Positions 31,615-37,687 of a DNA stretch of 64,000 bases are shown here, piece after piece. Below the pieces are notes generated by a model. It saw only the letters and a program-made list of their open reading frames with translations, was not told where the DNA came from and did not search any database. Origin of the DNA: Anaerolineae bacterium (lineage in GTDB: Bacteria > Chloroflexota > Anaerolineae > VGOG01); contig JBAWAP010000323.1 of assembly GCA_049589355.1 (NCBI GenBank), positions 24,539 to 88,538 on the forward strand. The letters are read 5' to 3'. The position numbers and the translations under genes are program-made. How positions within the stretch are numbered: position 1 is the stretch's first letter; every line of letters starts with the position of its first letter.

Positions 31615-32820
31615 CTATTCCTTCGCCACCAACTCCACCTCGGTGACTATGCTCTGGTAGTCCCAGCCTGAGGCGTAGATTCTGATGGAGATAAGGTGAG
31701 CAGGCTTGACGTCCCCCAGGATTTCGATCAGGTTGCCCGATTCGTAGGAATACCAGACATTGCGGGGAATCTCCATGCCGTTGATGATGAGGTAGTTATC
31801 AGGGTTTTCATAGTAAAAGCCCTGAACCCAGTGATTAGGATTTCCGTAGGCGTCTTGGTAGTCCAAGCGGACGATGATGGGGTACTCGGAGTGTAATGTT
31901 CCGCCGCCGGACAGGCTTTGGTAGAGGAGCATGACGGAGAGGCGAAGTTCCAGGGCCCCATAGTCGCGGATGTCCTTATCTATGGTTTGGATGATGCCCG
32001 TCTCTCCGTGGTGGATGTTCCCCCCCAAGCGCTGGAAGAGCACTGCCTGGCGAGCGCCGCTGGTGATGATCTCCACCCGGCCGCTGGCCTCGTTGGGGTC
32101 ATCCCGGTCATCATAAGAGACCCAGCCCTTTTCCAGGGGCTCTCTGAAGTCACCGTTACCGATGATGTTTCGCTCCGCTGGCAGGGGACCTAGGGGCTCT
32201 CTGCCGATTTCCACCGTTGTCCTCTCTCCCCGCCCCAGTTCTACCGTCTTCCCCATGGCTGTGACCTTTGCTCGTCCGTCGCGCACGGTCAAGTGGAATT
32301 CCTCGCTGCTCACTTCTATCGAGTAGCTCCCGTCCTCCTCCAGCTCGACTGCAGCGTGGGGGGTTCGCACCAGGAAGTCCAGGGGGGATTTCATTGGTGG
32401 CGCCACGCCGATTCTGACTCTCCCGCCCGTCACTTCCAGGACGATGGTGTCGGGCTTGGGGCTGAAGTCGAATCTGGGTGACTGCGTCTTCAGGATGACC
32501 ACTTGGGTCTTGTTGTAGAGTTGCAGCGTGCTATCCTTGAAAAACTCCAGGAAAGCTTGCGATGTGGCATCGGTAGTGATGGTGGATCCTTCCAATACAT
32601 CGTCCTTGGTGCCTGTTACAGCAAAGGGCACACTAGCGTTCGGCTCCTGCACCTGAACGGTGCCCTTAACGGCCGCCAGGGACGTCTTGTGGACCTGGGT
32701 GGCATTGATAAGGTACCAACGGATGCCAAGGGGGATGCTCACCGCCAGGAAGCAGAAGATGGCGAAGGCAATGGAGAGGGTTATCCAGGCCAGCCTCGCA
32801 GGGTTCTTTCTCAGACTCAT
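31615..32820 (-). CDS. Membrane-anchored protein, possibly with a FecR-like domain
   Basis: N-terminal TM anchor followed by beta-rich extracytoplasmic domains. 401 aa. Family assignment is weak. Confidence 0.4.
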   Translation of the reverse strand: MSLRKNPARLAWITLSIAFAIFCFLAVSIPLGIRWYLINATQVHKTSLAAVKGTVQVQEPNASVPFAVTGTKDDVLEGSTITTDATSQAFLEFFKDSTLQLYNKTQVVILKTQSPRFDFSPKPDTIVLEVTGGRVRIGVAPPMKSPLDFLVRTPHAAVELEEDGSYSIEVSSEEFHLTVRDGRAKVTAMGKTVELGRGERTTVEIGREPLGPLPAERNIIGNGDFREPLEKGWVSYDDRDDPNEASGRVEIITSGARQAVLFQRLGGNIHHGETGIIQTIDKDIRDYGALELRLSVMLLYQSLSGGGTLHSEYPIIVRLDYQDAYGNPNHWVQGFYYENPDNYLIINGMEIPRNVWYSYESGNLIEILGDVKPAHLISIRIYASGWDYQSIVTEVELVAKE

Positions 32821-32821
32821 T

Positions 32822-33766
32822 CTATCTCCACAGCCAGATCAGTCTGGCTCTCCTCTCGTCTAGCCGGTTCAGCCCTGCTTCGTGGGCCAGGCGCACCGCT
32901 TCCGCGTACTCTTCGGAGGTGATGCGGCGGTTCAGAGAAGGCAATTCGTGCCCTTTGTAGCAGGGGTGGTACTGGTCCATAAGGTTAAGGTAAGTGTTGG
33001 TGGAGACCTCTTGGGCCAGAAACTTTACGATCTCGGCCGTGCCGGCCAGCCCCTCAGGGAGTACCAGGTGGCGCACCAGCAGCCCTTGCAAAGCCACTCC
33101 CCGCTCGTCCAAAACCAAATCCCCTACCTGGCGGTGCATTTCTTTCATCGCCGCCTGGTTTATGGTCGGGTAGTTCTTTACCTTCGAGTAGCGCAGGGCT
33201 ACATCGGCGTCGGCGTACTTCATGTCGGGCATGTAGATGTCCACGATGCCGTCCAACAGGGCCAGGGTCTTCAGAGAATCGTAGCCGCCGGTGTTGTAGA
33301 CCAGGAGCAGGCGCAGGCCAGCCTCGGCGGCGATGAGCAGCCCGGCCAGAATCTGGGGCACCACGTGGGTGGGGGAGACGAAGTTGATGTTGTGGCAGCC
33401 CAGGTCTTGCAGGTGCAGCATCATGGCGGCCAGTGCCTCTGGCTCCACCTCTCGCCCCTGGCCCAGTTGGCTGATCTCGTAGTTCTGGCAGTACTGGCAG
33501 TTCAGGTTGCACCAGGCGAAGAAAATCGTCCCGGAGCCGCCCCGGCCGACCAGGGGCGCTTCCTCCCCGAAGTGGGGGTTGTAGCTAGAGACGAAGGCTC
33601 GCTCCCCCGTGCGGCAGACGGCCCCCTTGGCGCTCTCCCTGCGGTTCACGCCGCACTCCCTGGGGCAAACATCGCACGCCTCCAGTCGCTGATACGCCTC
33701 CTTGACCCGCTCCCTCAGCTCGCCGGAGCGGAGGAGTTTGAGGTATGCGGGTTCGAAATTCCCCAT
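32822..33766 (-). CDS. Radical SAM enzyme, PflX/YjjW-like activase family
   Basis: CNLNCQYCQN cluster motif. The ATG at 33766 overlaps the stop of the upstream gene (TGATG). Confidence 0.8.
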   Translation of the reverse strand: MGNFEPAYLKLLRSGELRERVKEAYQRLEACDVCPRECGVNRRESAKGAVCRTGERAFVSSYNPHFGEEAPLVGRGGSGTIFFAWCNLNCQYCQNYEISQLGQGREVEPEALAAMMLHLQDLGCHNINFVSPTHVVPQILAGLLIAAEAGLRLLLVYNTGGYDSLKTLALLDGIVDIYMPDMKYADADVALRYSKVKNYPTINQAAMKEMHRQVGDLVLDERGVALQGLLVRHLVLPEGLAGTAEIVKFLAQEVSTNTYLNLMDQYHPCYKGHELPSLNRRITSEEYAEAVRLAHEAGLNRLDERRARLIWLWR

Positions 33767-34401
33767 CACGTCAAGTTTCCCGCTTCTTTTCTAGCCGTCT
33801 GCTTTAAGTGCTCCCAGAGCGCCGTCACCTCTAGTCCCAGAGCTTTGGCGTGCCGCTCCACGTAGCTTTCATCGAAGCTGGCTTTCAAGGCTGGGTCTTC
33901 ACCCAGGTAGATGAAGACCAGGATGCCGTAGATATCCTCCTCGTGTCGGCGCGAGCGGCCTTCTACCCAGGCCATCAGCTTGCCTACGATGACGTCCTCT
34001 GGTCGTGCGAGCCAGGCCTCGAATTGTGCCCCGCTTGGATCCTCGACGGTGCGTTGAACTCGGCGAGTCAGGGCTTCACGATAGCGGGGATCCATGGTTA
34101 GCGGCACCAGGTCCACCTTCTGTCCTCGCTCAGTGTCAATCAGGTTGAACAGGATTCCGAGGCGAATGGAATCCCGCATCTGCTCAGGGTCGGCGTAGTA
34201 GCGCGGGGGCGGATAGCGCTTCGCTAAAGCCAGAATGTGAGCTTCCTGGAGGTCCACGACGATGTCAATGTCGTAGGTCACCCTGGTGCTGCCATAAGCT
34301 GCTGCGGCGAAACCGCCGATGATCACATACGGCGCACCGATCTCCTCCAGCGTCTGTAAGGCATCGAAGTAGAAGCTGGGAATAGCCTCTCGATCAGTCA
34401 T
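33766..34401 (-). CDS. Nucleotidyltransferase-fold protein (TA/defence-type)
   Basis: IIGGFAAAAYGSTRVTYDIDIVV (G-S...DxD) minimal nucleotidyltransferase signature. 211 aa. Confidence 0.65.
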   Translation of the reverse strand: MTDREAIPSFYFDALQTLEEIGAPYVIIGGFAAAAYGSTRVTYDIDIVVDLQEAHILALAKRYPPPRYYADPEQMRDSIRLGILFNLIDTERGQKVDLVPLTMDPRYREALTRRVQRTVEDPSGAQFEAWLARPEDVIVGKLMAWVEGRSRRHEEDIYGILVFIYLGEDPALKASFDESYVERHAKALGLEVTALWEHLKQTARKEAGNLT

Positions 34402-34609
34402 TGGAGCTCACTTCCTTCAATACCAGCAAATTGATCTCTCGTCGTGAGAGGTGTGGGTATTGGTGGCGCAATCGTCCTCGGACGATGTTCATGGCCAAGG
34501 CTTGAGCCTCCAGCATGGTGCGCACTCGCTTCGCCGCTGGCACTCGCGCCAGCAGTCGCAATTGATCAAGGTCCAAAGGTCCCCAAGGGCTCGCCCTTGT
34601 TTCTGTCAT
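34394..34609 (-). CDS. Small partner protein of the nucleotidyltransferase
   Basis: 71 aa from ATG 34609 (MTETRASPWG...). Overlaps the nucleotidyltransferase start by 8 nt. The longer ORF start lies in the relic copy in another frame. Confidence 0.5.
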   Translation of the reverse strand: MTETRASPWGPLDLDQLRLLARVPAAKRVRTMLEAQALAMNIVRGRLRHQYPHLSRREINLLVLKEVSSND

Positions 34610-34746
34610 CACTTGCTCCTGCGGTTTACGCCGCACTCCCTGGGGCAGACATCGCACGCCTCCAGCCGCTTATATGCCTCCTTGACCCGCTCCTTCAGCT
34701 CGCCGGAGCGGAGGAGTTTGAGATATGCGGGTTCGAAATGGGTCAT
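34609..34746 (-). pseudogene. Relic 5' fragment (45 codons) of the radical-SAM gene
   Basis: 34621-34746 matches 33641-33766 with about 7 substitutions over the ~117 nt up to the codon-3 divergence. Encodes MTHFEPAYLKLLRSGELKERVKEAYKRLEACDVCPRECGVNR and then stops. Its TGA overlaps the next ATG. Confidence 0.85.
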
Positions 34747-34814: not shown

Positions 34815-35918
34815 TCAAGACATGATCTGCTTCTCACAGTACTCTTCAAAAGTCCCAAAGGGGACCGGGTCTTCTTGAAAGAAATGTCCTAGGAAGCTGA
34901 GTACTTTCTCGCGCACATCTGACTTTGGTTCAACCAATGTCAGGGTTGGACGCCATGGGTTGTTGGCAATAGCGCGTTTGAATAGCCACTTTGCCTCAAT
35001 GTCCGCATCTGGAAAAGAATACCCGATTACAGTGAGGGTATCCGCTCTCTCAAGGAAGTGCTCAGCACGATGCCACATACCGACCAGTTCTGGTATATCC
35101 ATCTGTTTTAGCAAAGTGGGGGGCACCAACACAGGGACCAGATGTGCATTTCCACATGACAGACACGACTGGTCAGATATTTGTCGGTATCTTCGGAAGT
35201 AGGCAAGGAACAACCGCTGGCAATGCGGACAGCGCGCCCAATTGAGTGATCCATGAAGCTTCAAGAGGTCAACATCTTCTTTCCTTCTTTGCTTGGAAAG
35301 CAGCCTTTCATACCCTGGACAGTTTTCCACCTCTGCAAACTCAATGTTGTAATCGCCCAGTATCCCATGATTGTTTATTGACATAGCTTGATCCAAGAAG
35401 AGATCATAGTTAAAGGTGATCATGCAATTGATCTCATCAACATGCATAATGTAATCAACAAGTTTGTCGTAACAATTTCGATTGTGGTCAAGAGTTCCAT
35501 CTTCGAGTCTTCTAAGGCAGTCAGAGTAGTATATGAGCGTTGTCTGCTCTAATGTCGTGAAGATGAATTCATGGAGCGCATCTTGCAAGCCTTCAAAAGG
35601 CAGCCAGGTTTCACGATGTCGCAGCCCCAAATCCACGAAGGAAAGCAGATCTTCGATGTTGACAGAAGGGATGTCGAATGGTCTCCAGATATGGTCAGGG
35701 CCAAGTGCGTCCTCAGTATACGTTTCCAATCTGCTGCCGTAGAGCCTGTCTATAAGTTGTGCTACCATTCTAAACTTTCGTGTTGACACGTCGTAGGCGT
35801 CAGGAAACGGAAGTAGCCAGAAGCCCTCGGACAAGAAGTCCTTTGTTAGTGGTGCCCCCACGTGTTTAGACGCACCAGCTCCAAAGACATATATGTTTAC
35901 CTTTGAGCCATTGATCAT
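34815..35918 (-). CDS. SIR2-family (SIR2_2-like) protein with Zn-ribbon
   Basis: N-terminal IYVFGAGAS NAD-binding motif, LKLHGSLNW catalytic-His motif, CPHC...CLSCG. Visibly lower GC than the flanks. Confidence 0.75.
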   Translation of the reverse strand: MINGSKVNIYVFGAGASKHVGAPLTKDFLSEGFWLLPFPDAYDVSTRKFRMVAQLIDRLYGSRLETYTEDALGPDHIWRPFDIPSVNIEDLLSFVDLGLRHRETWLPFEGLQDALHEFIFTTLEQTTLIYYSDCLRRLEDGTLDHNRNCYDKLVDYIMHVDEINCMITFNYDLFLDQAMSINNHGILGDYNIEFAEVENCPGYERLLSKQRRKEDVDLLKLHGSLNWARCPHCQRLFLAYFRRYRQISDQSCLSCGNAHLVPVLVPPTLLKQMDIPELVGMWHRAEHFLERADTLTVIGYSFPDADIEAKWLFKRAIANNPWRPTLTLVEPKSDVREKVLSFLGHFFQEDPVPFGTFEEYCEKQIMS

Positions 35919-35933: not shown

Positions 35934-36056
35934 TTAATGCCTGCGCTTCTTGCGCGGACGAGCCGTAAACTGGGACGGCTGGGTCGATCCTCCCGATTGC
36001 GCGATTCTTCGCGTCCGTTCCCTCTGGTAATCGCGAATCTCTTTCGCCAGTGGATG
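35934..36056 (-). repeat. Direct repeat R1: relic gene 3' end (...HPLAKEIRDYQRERTRR...RPRKKRRH*)
   Basis: About 89% identical (13/123 mismatches, hand count) to 36233-36355. No usable start codon. Its stop lies 15 nt before the SIR2 ATG. Confidence 0.8.
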
Positions 36057-36067
36057 GCGACTAGAAT

Positions 36068-36117
36068 CACTGAAGCCACTGACAAACACTGAGCACACTG
36101 ATTCAGTGTCTTCAGTG
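36068..36117. repeat. Heptamer-type hairpin (CACTGAA units / TTCAGTG)
   Basis: CACTGAAGCCACTGACAAACACTGAGCACACTGATTCAGTGTCTTCAGTG. Confidence 0.8.
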
Positions 36118-36120
36118 TTT

Positions 36121-36189
36121 TCACCAATTCACCGGCGCTCTCCTTATCCTCCAGCGCCGCTCCCAATACTGGACGCACTTGTTTTGCCT
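36121..36189 (-). pseudogene. Relic 3' end of a DEDD-exonuclease gene
   Basis: 84% identical (11/69 mismatches) to the 3' end of the intact exonuclease gene (37154-37222). In-frame translation RQNKCVQYWERRWRIRRAPVNW* compares with RQNKYVQYRDRQWRIKRVPVNW*. Confidence 0.8.
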
Positions 36190-36232: not shown

Positions 36233-36355
36233 TTAATGCCTCCGTCTTTTGCGCGGGCGAGCGGTAAACTGCGACGACTTGGCCGATCCTCCCGATTGCA
36301 CGATTCTTCGCGTCCGTTCCCTCTGGTAAGCGCGAATCTCTTTCGCCAGTGGATG
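36233..36355 (-). repeat. Direct repeat R2: second relic copy of the same gene 3' end
   Basis: Encodes ...ILSRHPLAKEIRAYQRERTRRIVQSGGSAKSSQFTARPRKRRRH*. An in-frame TGA lies upstream and there is no start codon. Confidence 0.8.
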
Positions 36356-36451
36356 ACGGGAGAGAATCCGCAGGTGGGTGATGGAAACGATGATTCTCTC
36401 AGTTCACCAGCCGCTTAATCTCCAGCTTCGGCGCGCCAAAGTCACGGTGGG

Positions 36452-36754
36452 TTATCGCAGTCTCTTTCCTTTCGTCTTGATCTCCCAGGCCAGGGGGTGC
36501 TCGTCGCAAAACTGCTCAGGACGGAAGCGGACTGGCTCAATCCGGGGGTCACTGCGCAGCAAGGCATCCACGATCTTCTGGTGGTCTTCCAGCCAGTCGC
36601 CGGTGAAATCCCCTGAGATCAGAGCGACATCAATGTCACTGTCAGGACGAACCGTTCCCTCAGCATGGGAGCCATACAGATAGGCCGATACCAGACGAAG
36701 GCCTGAGCCTTCGACCTCCTCCAAGAAGCGAGTAACTGCTTTTTCAACATCCAC
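36452..36754 (-). CDS. MNT-type minimal nucleotidyltransferase
   Basis: LYGSHAEG...DSDIDV signature. 100 aa. C-terminus is HPLAWEIKTKGKRLR. Confidence 0.75.
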   Translation of the reverse strand: MDVEKAVTRFLEEVEGSGLRLVSAYLYGSHAEGTVRPDSDIDVALISGDFTGDWLEDHQKIVDALLRSDPRIEPVRFRPEQFCDEHPLAWEIKTKGKRLR

Positions 36755-37019
36755 CTGTGATTACTCCATCCTGTTCTTCAGTCGTTGTGGTGGACATTTT
36801 AGGCGAGGACGATTCCTGTCGAGCCTGGGTTACTAGCCGTTCCAGAATGGCAGAGGCAGCCAGGATGGCATCCTCTGGCTCTTCCTCGCGGTTCAGCAGA
36901 TTGTCTATGATGAGCTCCATTTGATCGAATGAGGTGATGTCCACCAGAACGGCTTTTGCCTCGCCACCTTCGTAAACGATGGGAAAGCGGTCTCGGATCC
37001 AGAAAGTCGTTTCGGCCAT
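36744..37019 (-). CDS. Small partner protein (Phd/YefM-like antitoxin fold suspected)
   Basis: 91 aa. Overlaps the MNT start by 11 nt. PIVYEGGEAKAVLVDITSFDQMELIIDNL pattern. Confidence 0.5.
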   Translation of the reverse strand: MAETTFWIRDRFPIVYEGGEAKAVLVDITSFDQMELIIDNLLNREEEPEDAILAASAILERLVTQARQESSSPKMSTTTTEEQDGVITGGC

Positions 37020-37153: not shown

Positions 37154-37687
37154 TCACCAGTTCACCGGCACCCTCTTGATCCTCCACTGCCGGTCCCGAT
37201 ACTGGACGTACTTGTTCTGCCTGCCAAATTCGTAGAGCTGCCTGGTGATCTCCACGTCCTGTTGGCAGTAGTCGAAAAGCTCCTGCATCTTGCCCTGACG
37301 CCACCAGCGGATGGCCTGCATCCCGTCGGCTGACTTCGTTGTTCCTAGAGTGGCGCTGGCCAGAGCGTCGAGGCTCAGGCGGAAGCCCAGGGTTCGGTAG
37401 ACATCATCCAGTATGTCCACCGTGGGGAACTGGCGGAGGGGATAGTCGGTGTAGGCCCTCAGCACCTCGTAGTCGAAGCGTACCACGTTGAAGCCTACCA
37501 CGAGATCCGCCGCCTTCAACTCCTCGATGAGCTCGGCTACGTTGTCTTCGGTGTAGTGGTGATACTCGCCATCGGCGGTCGAATAGGTCACCGCCACCGA
37601 CAGGCTCAGGTGCCGAATGTTGTGCCGGCCTCCCACTTCCTGAAAGCTCCGCCGGGTCTCCAGGTCGAAGAAGACGATGGTCTTCAC
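37154..37687 (-). CDS. DEDDy-type 3'-5' exonuclease (RNase H-like fold)
   Basis: FFDLET (Exo I), GFNVVRFD (Exo II), YCQQD (Exo III). 177 aa. 4-nt overlap with the upstream SNF2 gene. Confidence 0.75.
   Translation of the reverse strand: MKTIVFFDLETRRSFQEVGGRHNIRHLSLSVAVTYSTADGEYHHYTEDNVAELIEELKAADLVVGFNVVRFDYEVLRAYTDYPLRQFPTVDILDDVYRTLGFRLSLDALASATLGTTKSADGMQAIRWWRQGKMQELFDYCQQDVEITRQLYEFGRQNKYVQYRDRQWRIKRVPVNW

Follow-up and report, generated by a model that had tools for sequence, protein, structure and literature searches.

The DNA analysed here, called the window throughout, is a stretch of 64,000 nucleotides from an uncultured Anaerolineae bacterium (GTDB lineage Bacteria; Chloroflexota; Anaerolineae; VGOG01; assembly GCA_049589355.1, contig JBAWAP010000323.1, positions 24,539 to 88,538 of the forward strand). 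On its minus strand a small toxin-antitoxin (TA) cassette lies exactly between two copies of the head of a PflX-like radical-SAM (rSAM) gene. We consider it very probable that this arrangement is an old insertion, accompanied by a long duplication of its target, at a chromosomal hotspot. Homology-facilitated illegitimate recombination (HFIR) is put forward tentatively as the specific route, with a chance that we place somewhat below even. The complete account, in which old insertion, long target duplication and HFIR are combined with gene conversion between the heads, coupling of the cassette to its host operon and retention by addiction, seems to us evenly poised.

The duplication is an ungapped direct repeat of 122 nt (33638-33759 versus 34618-34739) with 94% identity, 7 mismatches and a spacing of 980 nt, as determined by MAFFT alignment and a repeat search. 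An earlier note on this DNA had placed the two copies at 33641-33766 and 34621-34746 and had counted about 7 substitutions by hand; the coordinates hold within a few bases and the count survives alignment. In the 120-nt in-frame core the 7 differences fall in five synonymous and two non-synonymous codons, and the first three codons of the two heads are not alike, reading MTH in the upstream copy and (M)MGN in the working gene. The upstream copy, referred to here as the relic, is an open reading frame (ORF) exactly as quoted in that note, with an ATG and a stop after 45 codons. The insert between the copies is 858 bp long and contains two genes, which agrees with the cassette of about 0.85 kb described before. 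In 5' to 3' order on the minus strand the features are as follows.

34609-34746, minus strand: rSAM-head relic, an open 45-codon ORF with a native-type ATG start (MTHFEP...); its repeat part is 34618-34739.
34394-34609, minus strand: 71-aa (71-codon) ORF, putative MenA1-like antitoxin; it overlaps the toxin start by 8 nt and has a sub-threshold Rv0078B match.
33766-34401, minus strand: 211-aa (211-codon) nucleotidyltransferase, MenT1/AbiEii-like toxin by its Pfam AbiEii match (24.7 bits), AlphaFold2 model and fold matches.
33638-33759, minus strand: downstream, functional head copy, rSAM codons 4-44 (repeat D2 of the repeat search, and alignment).
32822-33766, minus strand: intact PflX-like rSAM gene, 314 aa from its ATG, with an alternative GTG start at 33769; Pfam Radical_SAM (2.3e-12) and Fer4_12.
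31615-32820, minus strand: FecR-domain gene (Pfam FecR), in the same operon and directly downstream of rSAM.

Neighbouring ORFs in this series all overlap or abut. The sequence TGATG, with a shared A, forms both junctions of the cassette in the window: the relic TGA overlaps the ATG of the 71-aa ORF at 34609, and the toxin TGA overlaps the rSAM ATG at 33766. The FecR-like gene begins one base past the rSAM stop. The cassette is thus packed into the operon by overlapping stop and start codons, as had been noticed earlier. Because the relic, antitoxin, toxin and rSAM frames overlap stop-to-start and the FecR-like gene follows one base on, the cassette probably depends on the signals of the host gene for its transcription and for a coupled translation. 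A scan of the island that surrounds the cassette for sigma-70 promoters and terminators found none on the coding strand; sites were fewer than in shuffled sequences, and the result is uninformative for Chloroflexota.

We call the cassette a MenAT1-like TA pair because of its AbiEii match, its MenT1 fold and profile matches, its invariant nucleotidyltransferase residues and its Rv0078B-like upstream ORF; a toxic activity is suggested by the MenT literature. The 211-aa protein exceeds the cut-off for Pfam AbiEii (the DUF1814 nucleotidyltransferase toxin), scoring 24.7 bits where 22.5 are required. Its AlphaFold2 model, for which 25 homologues served as input, has a predicted local distance difference test (pLDDT) value of 92.3, and the best fold matches of the model in the PDB (Foldseek) are to Mycobacterium tuberculosis MenT1/Rv0078A in 8AN5 and 8AN4 (E ~5e-6, template modelling score 0.53-0.61), entries that represent MenT1 alone and in the MenAT1 complex. 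The alignment profile of the toxin also reaches 8AN4 (E 0.0086). Residues G37, R40, T42, D44 and D46, the signature of a GG...DxD-type nucleotidyltransferase core, are invariant in the family, a very abundant one with 1387 proteins at E<=1e-5; the few with source names are from Chloroflexota. The 71-aa ORF has a match to Pfam Rv0078B (MenA1 antitoxin) that is below threshold (13.3 bits against a cut-off of 27.1, E 0.085), and its homologues carry weak precomputed matches to the same family. An ORF of this kind is located directly upstream of the toxin gene wherever tblastn detects one (80 loci). PADLOC had no defence-system model matching toxin or antitoxin. A search of viral contigs produced no relative of the toxin, and plasmids yielded relatives at about 28% identity only.

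The relic and the cassette also occur together in five independent contigs, one from Logan (L001) and four from JGI (L085, L090, L091 and L094). Four of these continue into an intact rSAM head, while L094 stops inside the toxin gene. L001 is 99% identical to the window. In L085 and L090 the rSAM genes are 94.6% identical to that of the window and the toxins 88% and 96% identical, respectively; toxin identity is 84-87% in L091 and L094, with an rSAM identity of 84% in L091. Across all five contigs the toxins are 84-100% identical. The earlier note had left room for an assembly artefact; the independent contigs, their lineage-specific substitutions and a 15-nt variant of the junction exclude this, and the arrangement is real. 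Because the same block is found in lineages whose toxins are 84-96% identical, the insertion is, to judge by these sequence comparisons, old rather than recent and appears to predate the split of the lineages that carry it.

Relics orthologous to that of the window are present in L085, L090, L091 and L094; every one is open and every one ends on the antitoxin start. Counted by lineage, an open relic with its ATG retained and its end on the antitoxin start is found in four of four distinct lineages. The changes between the relics of the window and L085 comprise 3 synonymous and 5 non-synonymous ones and give no sign of purifying selection in this one comparison, where the numbers are small. The earlier note had weighed the possibility that all relatives carry both copies as independently conserved genes. 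This is partly so, as both copies recur, but the relic is not clearly under purifying selection and a related lineage lacks it. In that lineage (L082-L084 and L092) the cassette abuts rSAM through the same overlap of toxin stop and rSAM start, and there is no relic. A different cassette lies upstream there, and an 18-nt cassette leader is the sole shared part. A decayed relic was sought in L082 upstream of the cassette and rejected: local alignment was no better than with shuffled sequences and only the 18-nt leader matched.

Relatives with an empty site, which the earlier note had proposed to look for, do exist. In at least eight of them (L005, L006, L007, L009, L012, L016, L019 and L022) a gene for an RNase_H_2-like protein is 10-90 nt upstream of rSAM, and each has one rSAM head. 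Orthologues of rSAM were found in 80 genomes at 57-91% identity, the nearest being in metagenome-assembled genomes of Anaerolineae and other Chloroflexota; an exact-protein look-up with the product from either start found no record. The rSAM-FecR gene order is kept in L002, L007, L009, L085, L090 and L093. The closest relative in the genome collections, L002 (rSAM 91% identical), has one head only, whose N-terminus (..PHFEP) is relic-like, and neither relic nor cassette is present in the 303 nt upstream of its rSAM gene, which is as far as its contig extends.

The left junction, at which the relic meets the cassette, exists in two forms. In L091 and L094 it reads ...AGCGCCAAA followed by TGGAGCAGGCGATGAC, or by codon ...CGC AGG AAA AGC GCC AAA followed by TGGAGCAGGCG ATG. 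In the window, L085 and L090 it reads ...CGCAGG followed by AGCAAG(T/C)GATGAC, which is shorter by exactly 15 nt and remains in frame; an AGGAG motif resembling a Shine-Dalgarno sequence arises in it. The two forms are most parsimoniously explained by one origin and a later deletion of 15 nt. Two independent joins would need to fall within 6 nt of one another on the side of the cassette. The 5' leader that belongs to the cassette itself, (A)ATGGAG/GGAGCAG, is present without a relic in L082 and in the unrelated context of L087-L089. Because it is, comparison of the junctions places the original join, in all probability, at or very near GCCAA(A/G), a point at which the leader has only 2-5 nt in common with the rSAM sequence (CCAAGGGGG). 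The left joins lie at AGG / AA(A/G), common to the rSAM head and the cassette leader; the point of homologous crossover is blurred by gene conversion. A possible rSAM-head remnant (GCAGGAAAAG) upstream of the cassette in L087-L089 was not significant, as 43-86 of 500 shuffled sequences reached its score. The TGATG junctions, which had been described as identical, are so in the window; elsewhere the relic/antitoxin overlap is CGATGA, of the ATGA type (L085, L090, L091 and L094), and the intact rSAM gene of L091 starts GTGATA. Because the junction differs in these lineages, TGATG is specific to the window and is not a crossover core.

In L090 there are two tandem relic heads upstream of the cassette (99-567). 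The first, relic0 (108-239), ends GCCAAG, at the same codon as the L091-type relic, and different DNA follows it: 187 nt of unrelated sequence in which there is no separate ORF longer than the relic. A tblastn hint that relic0 reaches 103 codons was rejected, as the DNA match stops at GCCAAG after 132 nt. At the other end of the relic the boundary is constant: in the window, L085, L090 and L091 different cassettes begin some 12 nt upstream of the ATG of the relic. In L091 and L094 a ParE-type cassette is found between the RNase_H_2-like gene and the relic. Between that gene and the ParE-type cassette there is a 35-nt fragment with about 88% identity to rSAM codons 14-25 (L091 1911-1945; L094 5050-5084), which may be an older, eroded head relic.

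Over the 120 nt compared, each relic is nearest to the intact head of its own lineage. The L085 relic has 4 differences from the L085 intact head and the L091 relic 5-6 from the intact head of L091 or L082, while relics of different lineages differ from one another at 7-13 positions. Because the relics are closest to their own lineage's intact head, the pattern implies, given one old duplication, that the two head copies apparently undergo gene conversion. In line with this, the 3' 57 nt of both heads are identical in L001. The 6% divergence between the copies in the window cannot be read as that between donor and recipient, or as the signature of a foreign mimic of the target, because the copies appear to undergo such conversion. 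We also considered L001 (980+3 nt) as a 980-bp circle and rejected it: its first and last 30 nt are the k-1 ends of the 57-nt stretch common to both heads. It is one repeat period plus 3 nt because the k=31 de Bruijn graph, of which it is a Logan unitig, collapses the shared 57 nt.

The relic and its cassette occupy one end of a 3.4-kb island that separates the RNase_H_2-like gene from rSAM in the window. Read 5' to 3', it consists of a 91-aa ORF with an MNT-type nucleotidyltransferase gene, a repeat that we call X-tail (copy B), a relic of the RNase_H_2 tail, a hairpin, X-tail copy A, a SIR2_2 gene, the head relic and the MenAT-like cassette. Its remaining features are given here in that order, beginning with the upstream border.

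37154-37687, minus strand: intact gene for a 177-aa RNase_H_2-like protein (Pfam RNase_H_2, 4e-11), the island's upstream border.
36452-37019, minus strand: second two-gene cassette, a 91-aa ORF (36744-37019) and a 100-aa MNT-type nucleotidyltransferase (36452-36754; Pfam NTP_transf_2/Polbeta).
36233-36358, minus strand: X-tail copy B, a 126-nt repeat (D1, 90%) after the MNT cassette.
36121-36189, minus strand: RNase_H_2 3'-tail relic, the last 22 codons and the stop (D3, 84% to 37154-37222; blastn 4.9e-10).
35934-36059, minus strand: X-tail copy A, the same 126-nt repeat (D1, 90%), just before the SIR2 gene.
34815-35918, minus strand: SIR2_2-domain gene, 367 aa (Pfam SIR2_2; PADLOC SIR2 models), with a G+C content of 43-49% against about 60% around it.

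The head duplication is mirrored at the opposite border, where a 69-nt duplication of the RNase_H_2 tail (36121-36189 versus 37154-37222, 84%) brackets the 91-aa/MNT cassette. In the island, small cassettes are stacked up with stranded ends of both bordering genes among them, and the interval between the RNase_H_2-like gene and rSAM is very probably a chromosomal hotspot that collects small promoterless TA or defence cassettes in this Anaerolineae clade. The stand-alone SIR2_2 gene is missing from the same site in all of the relatives examined (L085, L090, L091 and L082) and is a separate acquisition within the island. Pfam scans of all island ORFs found no integrase or transposase, and there was none among the larger ORFs between 16 and 52 kb of the window, so that the earlier remark that no recombinase is visible stands for both. 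The wider surroundings are of a housekeeping kind (SecDF, ThiI, AspRS, IleRS, LspA and RluD).

Further observations concern single parts of the island. The X-tail repeat can be translated as the final 41 codons of a gene (...FTARPRKKRRH*), but the body of such a gene is not attached to it; the repeat has no protein homologue, no match in any related locus fetched and no Rfam family. A near-perfect 18-nt inverted repeat at 36084-36120, directly after the RNase_H_2 tail relic, may be an old terminator of the RNase_H_2-like gene. The MNT gene is 86% identical between the window (36452-37019) and L082 (3932-4614), and its partner is the 91-aa ORF in the former and an unrelated 130-aa HEPN gene in the latter; this looks like a partner swap within a TA pair.

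Bracketing of this type is found at other sites and around other cassettes. In L005 (6646-7333) a PemK/MazF toxin gene and a small upstream ORF lie exactly between two copies of the same rSAM gene's final 59 nt, with 57 of 59 positions identical. The 126-nt tail of a hydrolase gene is duplicated around a cassette in L127, and 120 nt from the 3' end of a neighbouring gene in L125; elsewhere the bracketing repeats include the cassette's own leader (L103) and a cupin gene (L122). The duplications of the rSAM and RNase_H_2-like genes and their counterparts measure 59, 69 and 122-137 nt, and at other sites they range over 59-180 nt and are unrelated in sequence. When direct repeats of at least 40 nt within 3 kb of the cassette were counted, they bracketed 9 of the 75 MenAT-like cassettes that lie in unrelated contexts. 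The expectation was 0.63, as calculated from 850-nt segments drawn at random from control loci and matched in flank length, and none of 2000 simulations reached 9; part of this enrichment of about 14-fold may reflect repeat-rich cassette islands, because core regions and other genomes supplied the control loci. The suggestion that homologous cassettes elsewhere might also be flanked by duplicated host gene ends is thereby borne out, the 3' ends in L125 and L127 included.

Three of these loci deserve separate mention. L122 is a metagenome contig of 1364 nt with only a cupin ORF and a MenAT-like cassette, and its 60-nt ends (1-60 and 1305-1364) are identical; it may be a circle or else a loop in the assembly graph that joins duplicated cupin heads. 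In L086 (214-3515) a 75%-identical MenAT-like cassette is 260 nt upstream of another radical-SAM gene, which is only 21% identical, has the N-terminal CxxCPRxC motif in common and contains a LAGLIDADG-domain intein; this link may be a coincidence. In L107 (5363-6824) an ORF that by eye, from its sequence, is DUF433-like lies with a possible PIN-like partner between 180-nt direct repeats (77%), and the site adjoins a relic N-terminal fragment of an apparent DNA methylase gene.

Insertion by HFIR would account for these data as follows. Incoming DNA from a relative would carry the cassette directly upstream of the donor's own rSAM gene. It would recombine homologously inside or beyond rSAM, while its other end would join illegitimately at a microhomology of 2-5 nt (AGG/AA) within the rSAM head of the recipient, at a point upstream of the homologous exchange. 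That head would thus be stranded as the relic: rSAM codons 4 to about 48 would come to lie on both sides of the cassette, with the upstream copy keeping its native start and the downstream copy heading the working gene. The block would then be inherited, a 15-nt in-frame deletion would shorten the relic in the window's lineage, and the heads would exchange sequence by gene conversion. Loss through recombination between the repeats would presumably be counter-selected by TA addiction. The same logic, with the RNase_H_2-like gene as the anchor, could have produced the tail relic at the other border. In favour of HFIR are duplication lengths that vary by site, joins at microhomologies, the lack of a recombinase and the donor-type arrangement that exists in L082-L084, where a relic-free cassette abuts rSAM with the same overlap of toxin stop and rSAM start.

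Several points weigh against this account. No donor genome or intermediate was identified. HFIR, integration of a circle and target duplication at a staggered break share one final topology and are not distinguishable here, since gene conversion has obscured the donor or recipient origin of each copy. Independent insertions in two clades would also explain why relics resemble the head of their own lineage. The relic of L090 and the L091-type relic that end at one codon hint at a preferred breakpoint, which would fit a site-specific process better, and the constancy of the boundary some 12 nt upstream of the relic's start points the same way. By a rough estimate, the open frame of the relic at about 10% divergence, with one in-frame indel, is not beyond chance.

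The earlier note had read the footprint as that of a small circle, integrated by a single (Campbell-type) crossover or by a site-specific recombinase. We find no specific indication of either: TGATG is not conserved, the duplications vary in length and no relative of the toxin was found on viral contigs. In the first version a small circle with the cassette and one rSAM head would have recombined homologously with the chromosomal head, and as an extension circles formed by recombination between the heads of an occupied site could spread the cassette between relatives. The topology fits this exactly. The heads share 120 nt at 92-97% identity, which is enough for RecA-type recombination, and they do interact if gene conversion is a guide; the single head of L002, with its relic-like N-terminus and nothing of the relic or cassette upstream, is compatible with excision. 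Set against this, the first origin of a circle with a head copy is left unexplained, no circular contig was found (L001 being a de Bruijn-graph unitig), the only extrachromosomal relatives found are the distant plasmid ones, and the junction is shared and old, not recurrent. We regard a circle as an unlikely source of the insertion, although one could act secondarily between the repeats, with the same topology.

The site-specific version, which we judge improbable, makes the cassettes non-autonomous passengers of a recombinase encoded elsewhere, whether integron-like, Xer-like or other, with its recognition site in the rSAM head. It draws on the two relic types that end at the same codon ahead of different downstream DNA, on the fixed starting point of the cassettes upstream of the relic in four loci, and on the arrangement of small cassettes in arrays of one orientation. 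Such a recombinase would, however, have to act where the toxin stop and rSAM start have zero bases between them, as do the relic stop and antitoxin start, which leaves no room for an attC-like site; the repeat scan, which included no dedicated attC model, showed no suitable inverted repeat, and no integrase was seen in the island or the larger ORFs of 16-52 kb. No crossover core is conserved at the repeat boundary, the junctions differing between lineages (TGATG versus CGATGA, and the 15-nt variant) and between sites, and the duplications at other sites are unrelated in sequence and in length.

More doubtful still is a history in two steps, in which the 5' end of rSAM was first duplicated locally in tandem, for instance through replication slippage, and a cassette was later inserted between the copies. 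A partial tandem duplication without a cassette does exist in L090, where the heads are 187 nt apart. This history needs two precise events, the second landing exactly between the copies with in-frame stop/start overlaps at both ends, and the same bracketing occurs around other cassettes (L005, L127 and the RNase_H_2 tail) and is enriched around MenAT-like ones. An assembly artefact, in which collapsed or chimeric strain variants gave a false duplication, could appeal to the metagenome-type assembly of the window, to graph branching at the repeat and to the break of L001 exactly there, but it is effectively refuted by the spanning of relic and cassette in L001, L085, L090, L091 and L094, all but the last of which reach the intact head.

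An insertion accompanied by a long duplication of the target remains our preferred description of the locus, and its relevance is to a question that is poorly understood, namely how TA and other small defence cassettes spread without a transposase or integrase. To that question the locus contributes a clean TA example with an empty site, a relic-free donor-like state, several dated intermediates and sister events at both ends of rSAM. It also suggests how a cassette can ride on the expression signals of a housekeeping gene through a stranded leader ORF, if the proposed coupling holds. One may speculate further that promoterless TA cassettes in Anaerolineae, and perhaps more widely, move regularly without an element-encoded recombinase, by target duplications of 60-140 nt at gene termini, stop/start wiring into the host operon, excision as circles through the flanking repeats and re-entry into the corresponding gene in other cells, and addiction that guards the occupied site, with the rSAM head, where some lineages have two or three relics stacked, as a preferred site; we think it rather unlikely that this whole generalisation is correct. 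The locus is a useful comparative case and not a new principle, and the uncultured host limits direct testing.

The nearest named relative of the cargo is MenAT1 (Rv0078B-Rv0078A), described as a TA system of M. tuberculosis (PMC10435456, PMC7450476 and PMC11375011). MenT1 is the best structural match of the toxin model, and the small upstream ORF is weakly Rv0078B-like. The likeness is limited by a toxin identity to MenT1 of 17-19% and an antitoxin match under the Pfam threshold. Unlike MenAT1, the cassette lacks a promoter and lies within a host operon, and it is a predicted pair whose activity on tRNA would be by analogy.

Phage 21 and e14 at icd, and islands that target tRNA and tmRNA genes, are integrative elements that carry a replacement for the end of the target gene. 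Each codes for an integrase of its own, and recombination takes place at a core that is short and fixed. They resemble our locus in that a diverged duplicate of a gene terminus brackets the insert and the gene stays intact. They differ from it in that here there is no integrase and no conserved core, and the insert is two small genes.

HFIR has been proposed for the displacement arrays of type VI secretion effector-immunity, Rhs and contact-dependent inhibition loci, which keep orphan gene ends (Kirchberger et al. 2017, PMC5361080). As in those arrays, a conserved gene serves as a homologous anchor, modules are added beside it, older orphan ends are pushed along and no integrase is involved. 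The stack-like character is also shared, with two relic heads in L090, a relic and a 35-nt fragment in L091, and the RNase_H_2 tail relic in the window. In the displacement arrays, however, the displaced pieces are 3' toxin tips with immunity genes and have an obvious selective value, whereas here the ends of housekeeping genes are stranded, the cargo is unrelated to them and either flanking gene can be the anchor.

The closest parallel is with restriction-modification units, for which 'insertion with long target duplication' was described by Furuta, Abe & Kobayashi 2010 (PMC2853133); that paper also cites Nobusato et al. 2000 for long target duplications flanking such units. Restriction-modification units without mobility genes have variable target duplications of about 100 bp, and the origin of these insertions has only been hypothesised by the authors, the mechanism being unresolved (PMC2853133, PMC3874152). 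The screen of Furuta et al. 2010 asked for repeats longer than 30 bp, both aligning to a single copy at an empty site, for an insert below 20 kb and for an absence of mobility genes. Our locus has a 122-nt repeat (94%), empty sites with a single head, an 858-bp insert and no mobility genes. The screen also asked for a restriction-modification system as cargo, where our locus has a MenAT1-like pair; this defines the screen and not the rearrangement. Both kinds of unit are of the addiction type (ours presumably so), lack an integrase or transposase and have direct repeats of tens to hundreds of bp that map to one copy at the empty site; in both the repeat length varies by site, the repeats often overlap gene ends and flanking repeats are enriched. 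The differences are that the cargo here is a type II-like TA pair, the host is an uncultured Anaerolineae bacterium, the duplication is in a coding head with in-frame stop/start overlaps at both junctions, the cassette is probably read within a host operon, and the insertion is old and common to several lineages. The literature that we searched contained no report of such a footprint for classical TA cassettes. The feature is not a freshly integrated mobile circle but a TA example of a known, mechanistically unresolved kind of rearrangement.

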